Positions 47,602 through 55,733 of a stretch of 64,000 nt of DNA are shown piece after piece. The position numbers were made by a program, and so were the translations under genes. The notes below the pieces were generated by a model, which saw nothing but the letters and a program-made list of their open reading frames with translations, was not told the DNA's origin and did not search any database. Positions within the stretch are counted from its first letter, which is position 1; every line of letters starts with the position of its first letter. The stretch comes from a virus: positions 1-64,000 of the IMG/VR virus record IMGVR_UViG_3300027704_000015, one strand, 5' to 3'.

Positions 47602-48108
47602 ATGAGTTGTCCGTATACTAGTTTAAAAAATAAAATGAAAGGTTATATTAACTTTATACTTCGACCTAAACGAGAAGAGTATGGTGGTATGCCTGTATGC
47701 CCGTTTGCAGGATCAGAGCTTGATCAAGGTAAGTTATTAATTGATATATTCGATCCTACTATAGAAAGTTTCATAGATAAGATGCAGGAGTTCAAGGATA
47801 GCAAATATAACTCTGCATTATTTGCTCAAGTTAATACTGACACTATACCAGAAGTAGATACACGAAAATATCAGTCATATTTAAACAAGCTAATTAAAAC
47901 TAGCGGGTTTACTAACTACAAGATTATATGCTTTAATCCAGAAGATACTATTACTAATATAGACGGGTTTAACCCTAGACAGTTTGCTCCTGCTTTTTTA
48001 ATTAATGTAGCAGATAAAAAAGAGCTAGGTAAAGCGCATAGGACAATTATGAAGTCAAACTATTTTGATAAAATGTCAGATGCTTATAAAAAATATCTTA
48101 AAGTTTAG
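47602..48108 (+). CDS. DUF1415-like protein
   Basis: CPFA...FNPED...PRQFAP. Confidence 0.5.
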   Translation: MSCPYTSLKNKMKGYINFILRPKREEYGGMPVCPFAGSELDQGKLLIDIFDPTIESFIDKMQEFKDSKYNSALFAQVNTDTIPEVDTRKYQSYLNKLIKTSGFTNYKIICFNPEDTITNIDGFNPRQFAPAFLINVADKKELGKAHRTIMKSNYFDKMSDAYKKYLKV

Positions 48109-48139
48109 TTGGTAGTGTGAAGATTATTTCGTATATTTA
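48107..48139 (+). promoter_or_regulatory. Bacteroidota-type promoter
   Basis: agTTG-N20-TATATTTA. Confidence 0.75.
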
Positions 48140-48149
48140 ATATAATTAA

Positions 48150-48366
48150 ATGGGATAGGTAACTATCTCATCAGTTATAAAACATGGAAGATACATGTTA
48201 AGAGTGGACGCGACTATGATTAAGACCGGCATCAATCGAAAGCAATGTAGCACACCTCTGACTCTTCCATAGCTCTACGAACAAAGGCCACCTTCACGTG
48301 GTGTAGGGTGTTAAGGTTAAAGTTGCTCACTATTATATCCAACTGTTTAACCCACTGAGAGCCTTT
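48150..48366 (+). ncRNA. Candidate structured RNA (multi-stem, possible pseudoknot)
   Basis: At least five stems with G-U pairs and a GUAA tetraloop directly behind a promoter in ORF-free DNA. Confidence 0.6.
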
Positions 48367-48397
48367 ATTTTTAAACAAATTAAAATTGATATATAAT

Positions 48398-48640
48398 ATG
48401 AAACGATTAACCGCACATCTAGCTCACGTTAAACCTATTAAAGAAAAGGTAGGTAACGAGGGTAAATTAAAAACGATATTGAACAATACATTATCAGTTC
48501 GCAACCTTAGATCACAAGCTGATGTTCACGAAGCTCTATCTAAGATTCGTTCCAACCACACTATTGCAACATGTACCAAGCATAATCATGCTACCTGGAA
48601 TGTAGGTGATGAAATGTGGTACACTTCTAACGAAAAATAA
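48398..48640 (+). CDS. Hypothetical phage protein
   Basis: ATG 48398. Confidence 0.5.
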   Translation: MKRLTAHLAHVKPIKEKVGNEGKLKTILNNTLSVRNLRSQADVHEALSKIRSNHTIATCTKHNHATWNVGDEMWYTSNEK

Positions 48641-48650
48641 TCCATAAAAC

Positions 48651-48778
48651 AGTTGGTAGTCTGAGATTTATTTCTTATCTTTAGTATATAAAGAAAGAGA
48701 GATGAAGAACCGGACAAACTACTTATTAAAAATAACTACAGATTTAGTTGGTAGTCTGAGTTTTTTTTCTTATCTTTA
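48651..48778 (+). promoter_or_regulatory. Two tandem Bacteroidota-type promoters (48651-48683, 48746-48778)
   Basis: Both agTTGgtagtctgag...TATCTTTA. Confidence 0.8.
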
Positions 48779-48812
48779 TATTATAAATAAAGAGAGATAA
48801 ATACCTAAAATT

Positions 48813-50852
48813 ATGATTATAAAAAATAGAACAAATTCAAGCTGGTGGTTAGGAAACGACTTCTTTTCTGAGGATAGAGATATCCTGACAGGGGATATAG
48901 TTTCAGATAGAACTTCTGAGCTAATTAAGCTATCTGGATACCGTAGAGCAATTTCTAACTTCGTTAATATTGTAACCGGTAAATCAGATATACCAGTTCG
49001 ATTTGAAGGTAAAGATAGTTATACTGATGGTAAGTCAGTTACTATTTCAGCTAGTATTAAAGATACAGATTTCGATAGTACTGTTGGTTTAGCTTTGCAT
49101 GAAGGTTCCCACGTTCTATTAACTGATTTTAAGATCCTACCTAATCTAGAGGATGAGATAGCTAGCTGGGTAGAAGCTACTGATATATACTCTAATATAA
49201 ATGAGAAGTATGAAATGAAGAGTCATATGGCAGCTAAAAGTTATGTGAAAGATAAAATTAGAAACTTGTTAAATATAGTTGAAGATAGACGAATTGATAA
49301 TTTCGTATTCAAATCAGCTCCAGGCTATAAAGGTTACTATCATGCATTATACAATCGTTACTTTAGCTCACCTATCATTGATAAAGCTTTAAATTCATCT
49401 AGTCATAGAGAGTTAGATTGGAATTCTTACATGTTTCATATCATTAATATTACTAATGCTAACCGTGATCTTAACGCTTTACCTGGATTATTAGATATAT
49501 ATAAAGCTATAGATCTAGCTAATATTGATAGATTAAAATCTACTACAGAATCATTACAAGTTGCATTAGAGATATTTGATATAGTAGAAGCAAATATTCC
49601 TGCAGTTACTGAGCAAGATGGTGATAGTCAAGAGGATGGTAACGAAGGTAATAATGCTAATAGCGGTGAAGAAGCTACTACTACAGAAGGTGAATCTAAA
49701 GATGATGGATCAAAAGCTGATGGAGATGATGCTATCACAGGTACTGCTCAAGGAAATGGTGCTGGTGGGTCAGGAGGATCAGATCTACCTGATTTATCAC
49801 CTCGTCAAGAGAAGCAGTTAATTAAAGCTATTCAGAAGCAAAAAGATTTTATCAATAATAATATTAAAAAGACTAAGCTTAATAAGACTGAGCAGAAGAA
49901 GATGGTGGCGTTAGATGAGTCAGGTTCAGAGATTAAAAAGGTAGGTAAGTCTACTAACAAGTATAATGGTAGAGTTTACGAAACTGAGTGTATATTAGTA
50001 AAAAAGCTCACTCAGAACGTTATTGATAATGCAGGGTACAATTTCTTAGATGCTCAAATGTGGAGATCTAAAGGAGAAAAAATGAGTAATGCTATTAGTA
50101 AAGGTGTTACTCTTGGTAGACAGCTAGGTAAGAAGCTTAAGTTAAGAAGCGAAGAGCGAAATACTAAATTTTCTAGACTTGATTCTGGTAAGATAGATAA
50201 GAGGTTGATTAGTACTTTAGGGTTTGGTGCAGAGAGAATATTTCAGCAGGTTATGAATGATAAGTATACCCCTGCTAATGTACACATCACAATAGACGCT
50301 TCAGGATCAATGGCTGGATCTAGATTCGAAAACTGTCAAACTGCTGTAGTTGCAATAGCTAAAGCAGCTTCTATGATTGATAACTTAGATGTTCAGATAT
50401 CTTACAGAACTACAACAGGTGATAAACCGATTATCTTAATTGCTTATGACTCTAGAGTTGATAGCTTTAGAAAAATTACTAACTTATTTAAGCATATATG
50501 TGCTTCTAATTTAACTCCAGAAGGTTTAACTTTTGAAGCTATAAAAAATGAACTAGTTACTGCATCAGGTGATAAAGAGAGTTATTTCATTAACTTCAGT
50601 GATGGAATGCCATACTGCGAGCCTAAAGGCTACCAGTACTGGGGAGAATCTGCTATACAGCATACTAGAAAGCAGGTTGATGGTATGAAGAAGAGAGGTA
50701 TCAAAGTGTTAAGTTACTTTATTGGAGGTGGTCAATATGGATCTACTAAAGATGACTTTACTAGAATGTATGGTAAATCGGCTCAAACGATAGATGTTAC
50801 TAGCCTTGTCCCATTAGCTAAGACGTTGAATAAAATGTTTTTAACCAAGTAG
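48813..50852 (+). CDS. VWA-domain protein with N-terminal HExxH domain (CobT-like partner of MoxR AAA+)
   Basis: LALHEGSH, NIVEDRRID, acidic linker, MIDAS DASGS, T.EG, FSDG. Confidence 0.88.
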   Translation: MIIKNRTNSSWWLGNDFFSEDRDILTGDIVSDRTSELIKLSGYRRAISNFVNIVTGKSDIPVRFEGKDSYTDGKSVTISASIKDTDFDSTVGLALHEGSHVLLTDFKILPNLEDEIASWVEATDIYSNINEKYEMKSHMAAKSYVKDKIRNLLNIVEDRRIDNFVFKSAPGYKGYYHALYNRYFSSPIIDKALNSSSHRELDWNSYMFHIINITNANRDLNALPGLLDIYKAIDLANIDRLKSTTESLQVALEIFDIVEANIPAVTEQDGDSQEDGNEGNNANSGEEATTTEGESKDDGSKADGDDAITGTAQGNGAGGSGGSDLPDLSPRQEKQLIKAIQKQKDFINNNIKKTKLNKTEQKKMVALDESGSEIKKVGKSTNKYNGRVYETECILVKKLTQNVIDNAGYNFLDAQMWRSKGEKMSNAISKGVTLGRQLGKKLKLRSEERNTKFSRLDSGKIDKRLISTLGFGAERIFQQVMNDKYTPANVHITIDASGSMAGSRFENCQTAVVAIAKAASMIDNLDVQISYRTTTGDKPIILIAYDSRVDSFRKITNLFKHICASNLTPEGLTFEAIKNELVTASGDKESYFINFSDGMPYCEPKGYQYWGESAIQHTRKQVDGMKKRGIKVLSYFIGGGQYGSTKDDFTRMYGKSAQTIDVTSLVPLAKTLNKMFLTK

Positions 50853-54490: not shown

Positions 54491-54745
54491 ATGTTAGCTA
54501 TGGATAGCTATACTGATAATTACGATACATTTAGTGATGATGATGAATTACTAAACGCAGCTATTAGTAATACATATGAATATTTAGTTAGTGAGCTAGA
54601 GATATCTGAACTTCCAGCTGGTACATGGATGCTTAAGCAACCAAGGCGAGTTGCAACTATAGATCAGCTTATAGAGTACTTTACAGGAACAGAAGAGTAT
54701 GAGAAGTGTGCTGAACTAGTAAAGATAAAACAAACAATAAATTGA
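54491..54745 (+). CDS. Protein with C-terminal UVR-like motif
   Basis: LIEYFTGTEEYEKCAELVKIKQ. Confidence 0.6.
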   Translation: MLAMDSYTDNYDTFSDDDELLNAAISNTYEYLVSELEISELPAGTWMLKQPRRVATIDQLIEYFTGTEEYEKCAELVKIKQTIN

Positions 54746-55025
54746 CCGCTAGTACTTTTATTAGCTGCTCAAATGGACGAGGGTTCGACTCCCTCCATCT
54801 CCACAACAATTATATGTGAAAACATATAATACAATAAATTACATATAAAGTATATGTAATTACATATAATATGGGGATGACTTGGATATTGACATTGAGA
54901 TAAGGATTTAAGGAAGGTCACGCATAACAGGCGAACATGTTGAAATGGCAATGGCGGCTTAATAAAGTCCCCAGAACCGAACGGCGTTAACAGGGCAAGT
55001 CGTATAAGCCCGGTGGTGGTGGACC
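54741..55025 (+). ncRNA. ssrA: Circularly permuted (two-piece) tmRNA
   Basis: T-arm GAGGG-TTCGACT-CCCTC and 3' acceptor CATCTCC-A (to 54803) precede 5' acceptor GGGGATG (54873); G3-U70; tag GEHVEMAMAA at 54930-54962. Confidence 0.9.
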
Positions 55026-55040
55026 TATAAGGTATAAATT

Positions 55041-55733
55041 ATGACAATGATGAGTAGACCAATAATAAAGAAAAAGATTAAGCGTAACAATGTTGTGTAT
55101 AATCTTGAGTTATGGAATACGATAGATGATGATTTTATACCAAATGTATCAGAGCCACCCCAATTCCGAAAAGATTTCTTTAATGATGTAGCTATGGATG
55201 GTAAATGGCCTGACTCAACAGAGTATCAAGAGAGGTTCGATGATTGGTTTGATAATCTATCTAAAGACAAGCAAATTCAATATGCTAGAGCTATTGATGA
55301 GTCTAATAGGGTTATAATATTAATGGTGTGGGAGCAAGTTAATAAATTAGATAAGCATGAGTTGTTCAATAATAACATCAGGCAGTTTAGTATCTGGTTC
55401 TCAGGTTTGGATCCAGCTGATATTGACTTCTACATGACACGTATAATGTCTAAACGTCGTTTGATGCCTGCTGAGTTTAGAAGTGATAGCCCTGAGTTAT
55501 TATCTGCTGAAGAGATAACTAACGCGTTACAAGGTGTATATGATAGTATAAATGATGATTTAATTCGAGCAACAACTATTAACGGTCTACTGTGTATTAG
55601 CTGTACTGATGAATCAAGATTAGCTAAAGTAAAAAAGCATATGATAATGCATGGTAGTATATTACGTGATTATCGCAAGAAAGAAAACATCAGCGGTAAT
55701 ATGATTTATACATATATATTTTCTAAACCGTAA
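55041..55733 (+). CDS. Hypothetical phage protein
   Basis: 230-aa ORF. Confidence 0.55.
   Translation: MTMMSRPIIKKKIKRNNVVYNLELWNTIDDDFIPNVSEPPQFRKDFFNDVAMDGKWPDSTEYQERFDDWFDNLSKDKQIQYARAIDESNRVIILMVWEQVNKLDKHELFNNNIRQFSIWFSGLDPADIDFYMTRIMSKRRLMPAEFRSDSPELLSAEEITNALQGVYDSINDDLIRATTINGLLCISCTDESRLAKVKKHMIMHGSILRDYRKKENISGNMIYTYIFSKP

Follow-up and report, generated by a model that had tools for sequence, protein, structure and literature searches.

To our knowledge, HDV-like ribozymes have been assigned only a few natural roles. In phages, the published role so far is tRNA trimming by the theta ribozymes of gut Caudoviricetes, which are minimal HDV-like ribozymes without P4, positioned at the 3′ ends of tRNAs; 58% of them abut a tRNA, and the survey that described them reported few or no matches outside gut phages (Kienbeck et al. 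2024, PMC10879173). Here, we describe a predicted P4-bearing relative that is common in phage contigs from the ocean and occurs behind cargoes other than tRNAs. It was identified in a 64-kb stretch of viral DNA, referred to below as the window.

Similar to the theta ribozymes, the ribozyme of the window is phage-borne, and its cut would make the 3′ end of a stable RNA after a closing helix and one unpaired base. In contrast to the theta ribozymes, it has a P4 of 10 bp with a 14-nt loop, its expected product is a small RNA that is not a tRNA, and ARAGORN finds no tRNA in the window. The predicted strand order P1-P2-P3-L3-P3′-P1′-P1.1-P4-J4/2-P2′ is the same as that of the HDV, CPEB3, and drz-Fpra ribozymes (RF00094, RF00622, and RF02682). 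Features common to the class are a 7-bp P1 starting with a G·U pair at the predicted cut and, ahead of P2, an unpaired C with Y-R-A after it; a 3-bp P3 with a 7-nt L3 would also fit the class. The letters of L3 are presumably the same as those of the CPEB3 ribozyme. Unlike the ribozymes described by these three models, the one studied here scores below every Rfam threshold. Its own characteristics within the class are a long P4 with a 2-nt bulge and the conserved loop start CUCAC, an A-rich J1/2 facing a U-run after P2, and its occurrence in marine phages.

The locus is probably one transcription unit that provides two RNAs, with the 3′ end of a promoter-driven small RNA being made by an HDV-like ribozyme. 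The promoter at 48108–48137 would start the RNA near position 48145. The first ~125 nt would form the small RNA, composed of a GNRA-capped 5′ hairpin and a ~70-nt motif held in an 8-bp closing stem, and the next 95 nt would fold as the ribozyme and cut one base after the closing stem. After the cut, the freed small RNA would have a defined 3′ end with a 2′,3′-cyclic phosphate, and the ribozyme, with a 5′-OH, would stay at the head of the downstream RNA, which is here probably the mRNA of an 80-aa ORF.

Genomic context of the structured region

The window covers positions 1–64,000 of an 80-kb viral contig from IMG/VR (IMGVR_UViG_3300027704_000015) with an estimated completeness of 46%. The + strand carries every long ORF of the window. 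The encoded proteins include a carbamoyltransferase, UvdE, a CobT-like protein, and an AAA protein, and a gene for a permuted two-piece tmRNA is located at 54711–55053 on the + strand (Rfam, 55.7 bits; tag peptide GEHVEMAMAA). These genes suggest that the phage is a large marine myophage of the pelagimyophage/Melnitz kind, and a two-piece tmRNA has been described as typical of this group (PMC9004378). The two-piece tmRNA gene is also found in the related contig L007. A blastn search with the segment 47600–48900 identified no nucleotide relative among deposited or cultured phages.

The structured region is positioned in a 289-nt gap between ORFs of 168 aa (47602–48108) and 80 aa (48398–48640, + strand), neither of which has a Pfam or PHROG family. 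A coding reading of the gap (48109–48397) was rejected, because the ORFs on its + strand do not exceed 18 codons and the minus-strand ORFs of 35 and 48 aa oppose all neighboring genes. A tRNA or a piece of tmRNA was rejected as well, since ARAGORN finds none at the locus.

An earlier note on this DNA described positions 48150–48366 as a single unrecognized structured RNA of ~215 nt with its own promoter, either a novel non-coding RNA or a switchable leader. The present analysis agrees with the note on a structured, non-coding RNA region that is driven by a promoter and lies on the phage's + strand. Every stem listed in the note can be drawn at the place given there, but the stems are divided between two elements, and instead of a single RNA there are two joined parts, which are expected to self-cut at 48271/48272. 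The z-scores of the minimum free energy relative to shuffled sequences are −0.21 for 48150–48366, −0.38 for the ribozyme, and −1.50 for the upstream part. These values are uninformative; the stems are therefore not beyond chance on one sequence, and support for them comes from homologues.

Homologues and predicted fold of the ribozyme

No Rfam family matches the locus at curated thresholds. In a search extended to an E-value of 10, the single match is HDV-F-prausnitzii (RF02682) at 48272–48321, with a score of 20.5 bits (E 0.26, cut-off 44). The match skips P4, and Rfam models cannot score a pseudoknot. The description of the family as unrecognized is accurate insofar as the scores are below the Rfam thresholds, but the 3′ 95 nt can be placed in the known class of HDV-like ribozymes. 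Threshold-based Rfam annotation misses the long-P4 ribozyme group.

Exact and degenerate pattern scans of IMG/VR provided ~50 further copies of the 3′ element. The covariance model R1, built from 12 copies, identified 53 copies in the collected loci, 47 of which are distinct. The distinct homologues are from 46 environmental phage contigs, mostly marine, and from one gut crAss-like phage. R1 matches the window with 112 bits on the + strand only, which agrees with the strand proposed earlier from the G-U pairs, and there is no second ribozyme copy in the 80-kb record. A blastn search for phage relatives with a 182-nt query matches only the unannotated ribozyme of the crAss-like phage. This P4-bearing ribozyme of the human-gut phage cr4_1 (NC_055893.1; L095:591-681; R1, 38.7 bits) ends 4 nt 5′ of a tRNA-Leu.

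Covariation, the weak Rfam match, and the R1 score indicate that 48272–48366 on the + strand is an HDV-like (delta-type) self-cleaving ribozyme with a nested double pseudoknot. In an alignment of 12 homologues prepared with MAFFT, 99.7% of cells pair and ten pairs contain compensatory changes. In the alignment of the 47 distinct sequences, which was fitted to P1, P3, and P4 and not to P2, 99.3% of cells pair and 17 of the 28 pairs are compensatory (5/7 in P1, 10/10 in P4, and 2/7 in P2). None of 500 shuffles reaches the covariation values of the ribozyme, and slid controls pair at 30–46%.

P1 is formed by 7 bp between 48272–48278 and 48303–48309. Its first pair is G·U in 44 of the 47 sequences and G–C in three. 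P4 contains 10 bp between 48316–48325 and the segments 48340–48343 and 48346–48351, which are separated by a 2-nt bulge, and it is capped by the 14-nt L4 (48326–48339). The pseudoknot helix P2 has 6–7 bp, formed by 48283–48288 with 48361–48366 and by the additional pair C48289–G48359, and is 97.9% paired. These three helices correspond to the pairings GCTCTAC/GTAGGGT (P1), GGTTAAA/TTTAACC with GTTG/CAAC (P4), and the crossing AAAGGC/GCCTTT (P2) of the earlier note, all of which are supported by covariation. Compensatory changes of C–G to U–A in P2 are present in L007, where column 17 changes with its P2 partner, and in L104/L124, where column 18 changes with column 91. These changes find their compensation in the distant 3′ strand, as the pseudoknot alone would predict; a nested alternative hairpin does not account for them.

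The remaining elements are P3 (48290–48292 with 48300–48302; letters ACC/GGU), the 7-nt L3 (48293–48299), and P1.1 (C48295–G48310). The letters of P3 and P1.1 fit the HDV order but are invariant across the 47 sequences; they are thus not supported by covariation and rest on analogy. RNAalifold recovers P1 and P4 unaided and draws a nested 5-bp hairpin in place of P2 and P3, preferring for P3 the register GCCAC/GTGGT over the ACC/GGT of the HDV fold. The same inner hairpin was proposed in the earlier note; it is invariant, but the compensation on the P2 side favors the pseudoknot with the ACC/GGT register.

J4/2 spans 48352–48360. It contains a C (48355) followed by Y-R-A-G, which is invariant in the alignment rows printed and is also present in the minimal form of the ribozyme. 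By analogy with the HDV-like class, C48355 is the candidate catalytic base. The cleavage site is predicted between A48271 and G48272, 5′ of G48272, which has the position of the first G of P1 in the HDV fold. From the chemistry of the ribozyme family, the ends would be a 2′,3′-cyclic phosphate on A48271 and a 5′-OH on G48272.

P4 and P4 loops of HDV-like ribozymes are normally unconstrained. In the present group, the start of the P4 loop, CUCAC(U)A (48326–48332; columns 56–62 of alignment A4), is near-invariant in 46 of the 47 ribozymes, and the P4 stem varies freely despite the conserved loop start. The conservation may reflect a tertiary contact or the binding of a partner. Directly after P2, opposite the A-rich J1/2, is a U-rich tract (48367–48373, + strand), which also follows nearly all homologues and is shorter where a tRNA follows (L120, L127). 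The tract may either extend P2 or act as a weak terminator.

The minimal form, an HDV-like ribozyme without P4, was found at L009:1082-1134 (−) and L015:669-721 (+) in viral contigs of 156–167 kb from sample 3300045988. It starts exactly at the 3′ end of a tRNA-Thr, as determined by ARAGORN, and thus represents the true theta arrangement. Its P1 and P2 letters are wholly different but complementary, and its P3 and L3 letters are the same as those of the long-P4 form.

Proposed upstream small RNA

The ~125 nt upstream of the predicted cleavage site appear to be a small non-coding phage RNA of an uncatalogued family. The RNA would begin with a hairpin (48150–48171, + strand) with a 9-bp stem and a GUAA (GNRA) loop, which was listed in the earlier note. 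The hairpin is kept in five relatives, with one pair changed from A–U to G·U in L007 and the loop changed from GUAA to GUGA in L083 and L090, and this conservation supports it weakly. The following part (48184–48270, + strand) is a cargo enclosed by an 8-bp closing stem (48184–48191 with 48263–48270), and A48271 is left unpaired between this stem and the predicted cut. The closing stem covaries: one pair is changed from A–U to G–C in L007, and other copies of the motif have different closing stems. The closing stem ends 0–2 nt before the predicted cleavage site. The pairing of ATGGAAGA with TCTTCCAT, previously regarded as an alternative that competes with two other stems, is this closing stem; covariation indicates that the pairing is real, and it is the role assigned to it that has changed.

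In the close relative L005/L007, the conserved parts are the 5′ hairpin and the last ~95 nt, and unrelated sequence takes the place of the middle ~75 nt. Both the stem flanking the swapped middle and the crossing pair change in a compensatory manner in L007. The supposed competing stems AACATG/CATGTT and AAGAGT/ACTCTT are lost in the close relatives L075 and L086, and the outer closing stem TCAGT/ACTGA is broken in L007 and L075 and would cover the catalytic junction. Thus, when homologues were collected and covariation was examined, as the earlier note had suggested, P1, P2, P4, and the closing stem of the cargo were supported and these three stems were not conserved. The switchable leader depended on the competing stems and is not upheld. 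It is very improbable that the region is a single RNA of ~215 nt that stays uncut, represents a new family, and switches between mutually exclusive folds. Its stems can be drawn and a Rfam match above threshold is absent, but the two halves occur apart in other phages, neither the outer closing stem nor either of the competing stems is conserved, and all the sequence hallmarks of a self-cleaving HDV-like ribozyme are present in the 3′ half.

The closing stem encloses a ~70-nt conserved motif (48192–48262, + strand; alignment A2, model R2). Scans with a 16-nt core identified 28 distinct copies, all in viral or metagenome contigs, and a pattern with eight core bases left free provided no additional ones. 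A 4-bp hairpin stem (48218–48221 with 48234–48237) presents an invariant 12-nt loop (48222–48233). The two outer pairs of the stem covary (G–C, A–U, U–A), and in L102 a third pair is changed from U–A to C–G. A short 2-bp helix (48204–48205 with 48250–48251) covaries as well. The other conserved segments are AGUA-like, GAA, CAA, and a 3′ ACCUCU. The pairs of the motif are 88% paired and six of ten are compensatory, counts that are indicative only since the pairs were picked after inspection of the same alignment. RNAalifold gave no useful consensus structure for the motif.

The exact core of the motif is absent from 185,579 prokaryote genomes. Seven matches of the core pattern in prokaryote genomes have dissimilar flanks and were attributed to chance, and a host origin was rejected. 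A blastn search of the motif against E. coli genomes gave no match. In Rfam, searched to an E-value of 10, the motif of the window has no match, and only the terminator-type copy gives chance matches. The novelty proposed for the whole region is therefore retained for this motif, which is in no Rfam family but is smaller than the RNA originally claimed. A resemblance to tmRNA and to the 23S sarcin-ricin region was considered and dropped. The loop sequence was not found in the literature searched, which is not proof of its absence there. A target search of the window with the reverse complement of the 12-nt loop gave nothing above chance level.

Model R2 scores 82.3 bits at 48192–48262, the one motif copy in the phage. 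Among ~45 ribozyme loci that did not originate from the motif search, R2 finds the motif in one further locus (L102, 56.3 bits), indicating that the motif is a minority cargo of the ribozyme. The best guess is that the small RNA is a stable trans-acting RNA, the invariant loop of which binds a conserved partner from the host or the phage. The invariance of the loop argues for a specific partner of this uncatalogued small RNA, which is flagged here.

Proposed alternative 3′ ends and diversity of cargoes

Of the 28 motif copies, 16 are followed by the ribozyme, and in the other 12 the closing stem runs straight into a U-run; two of the latter are followed by a tRNA. From these numbers, the ribozyme and the terminator look like interchangeable makers of the 3′ end of the motif RNA. 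Similar to an intrinsic terminator of a small-RNA gene, as present in the 12 phage contigs, the ribozyme would place the 3′ end in the same position relative to the motif, at the foot of the closing stem, and would do the terminator's job. The terminator-ended twins in other phages imply that a 3′ end at this position is what matters, and the ribozyme most likely trims the tail of the small RNA. Unlike at an intrinsic terminator, the end would come from self-cleavage after transcription has passed on, so that a single promoter can supply the small RNA as well as a gene downstream. The locus offers a clean, testable example in which the same RNA would be ended by a ribozyme in some phages and by a terminator in others.

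The use of the closing stem as a terminator stem in 12 copies could also suggest that the motif is a riboswitch-like sensor of a ligand or protein, in which formation of the closing stem gates the terminator or the ribozyme and thus controls the downstream gene. The motif is always upstream of a co-oriented gene, and its unpaired segments are strongly conserved. However, the downstream genes are unrelated (primase, Hsp20-like, the 80-aa ORF, CobT-like, and tRNA), there is no conserved alternative pairing, as the competing stems proposed earlier are not conserved, and in several phages the motif is in the 3′ tail of the preceding gene. A sensor is therefore improbable, and trimming of the small RNA is the preferred function of the ribozyme.

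ARAGORN finds no tRNA ending at the cut in the 44 P4-bearing loci examined (the window and 43 others), and in P4-bearing loci a helix ends 0–3 nt before the cut. The cargoes include the motif, a family of 15-bp hairpins, another structured element, a stop-codon hairpin, and almost nothing after the promoter. The stop-codon cargo is a short hairpin over the stop of a small DUF4494-like ORF (26.9 bits, cut-off 27), and such an ORF precedes many of the ribozyme homologues. The hairpin of ~15 bp (L105, L107, L108, L118, L120, L121, L122, and L127) is positioned in the 60 nt before each ribozyme; its stem covaries and ends 1–2 nt before the cut. The third recurrent cargo is present in L097, L111, L112, L114, L126, and L128.

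The closing stem of the window is also found with other contents. It encloses an unrelated insert of ~75 nt at L007:7183-7270 (−), a short hairpin at L017:87-120 (+), and, in L116 (upstream of 3329, −), a copy of the motif with its center deleted. Cargo is thus swapped or lost within a fixed closing-stem frame. There is about an even chance that the motif represents a new small-RNA family of marine phages and that the long-P4 ribozyme is a portable end-maker, swapped with terminators and used behind at least four types of unrelated stem-closed cargo, allowing one promoter to provide a small RNA and a message. A search of the literature, which is not proof of absence, found no description of long-P4 HDV-like ribozymes of marine phages.

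Downstream of the ribozyme

The 80-aa ORF (MKRLTAHL...) starts 31 nt after the ribozyme. There is no room for its own promoter, and the lone sigma-70-like match ends at the ATG; translation of the ORF probably takes place from the 3′ cleavage product, which would begin with the ribozyme. Members of the ORF family, M(L)KRLT[AV]HL..., are basic proteins of 80–114 aa without Pfam or PHROG assignment and also occur behind different upstream cargoes.

The downstream genes raise the alternative that the ribozyme serves mainly the RNA that follows it, by stripping the leader and providing a fixed, structured 5′-OH end for an mRNA or a tRNA precursor, as a natural insulator. The upstream hairpins, including the motif, would then mainly protect the fold. 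In the HDV ribozyme, an upstream hairpin sequesters upstream sequence and favors the correct fold. An ORF of the 80-aa family is present 25–32 nt after 10 of 26 ribozyme matches (24 distinct), with no room for a promoter, and four ribozymes are followed by a tRNA within 3–7 nt. Since the cargo is very diverse and in some cases trivial, making the 3′ end of the motif RNA may be a side effect of a broader role of the ribozyme. However, the motif is conserved independently, has an invariant loop, and also occurs without the ribozyme, with a stem and a U-run. In the close relatives L072 and L094, which are without the 80-aa ORF, the promoter, motif, and ribozyme are kept, and nothing but a U-run separates the ribozyme from the next phage promoter. 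A mainly downstream role is therefore rather unlikely; it is nevertheless compatible with the production of a small RNA by the ribozyme, and both products may matter.

Promoter and repeated promoter-like elements

The promoter-like element at 48108–48147 (+ strand) was detected as a match in a sigma-70-like scan. It contains the −35 hexamer TTGGTA (48109–48114), a 17-nt spacer, and the −10 hexamer TATATT (48132–48137), and transcription would start at about 48144–48146. The comparison of six homologous loci, among them L007, L075, L083, L086, and L090, showed that TTGG.. and TATATT are fixed 17 nt apart and that the letters of the spacer drift. Fixed hexamers with a drifting spacer are the sequence pattern of a sigma-70-type promoter, and the promoter of the earlier note is thus corroborated as a repeated phage element with hexamers conserved in homologous loci. 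In this phage group, the promoter immediately precedes the small RNA. In L069, L072, L085, and L094, a similar promoter directly abuts the closing stem, without the 5′ hairpin.

The element is repeated in the phage, with 13 matches compared to 2.5 expected, and ~9 copies are in the window. The copies are at 1494, 38003, 38788, 39038, 43540, 48108, 48652, 48747, and 57435, all on the + strand. In the repeated unit of ~45 nt, a variable spacer separates a GTTGGTAGTCTGA box from an A/T-rich block with TATAAATA-like letters; the unit is mostly positioned 10–30 nt 5′ of start codons. It may be either a host sigma-70 promoter or a phage late-type promoter.

At 48652–48840 (+ strand), the element is present twice in tandem, and the next gene, the CobT-like gene at 48813, has two promoter copies of its own. 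The first copy is followed by a 32-codon ORF, the start of which resembles that of the CobT-like gene. The segment looks like a duplicated promoter and gene head, and the same arrangement is found in L005.
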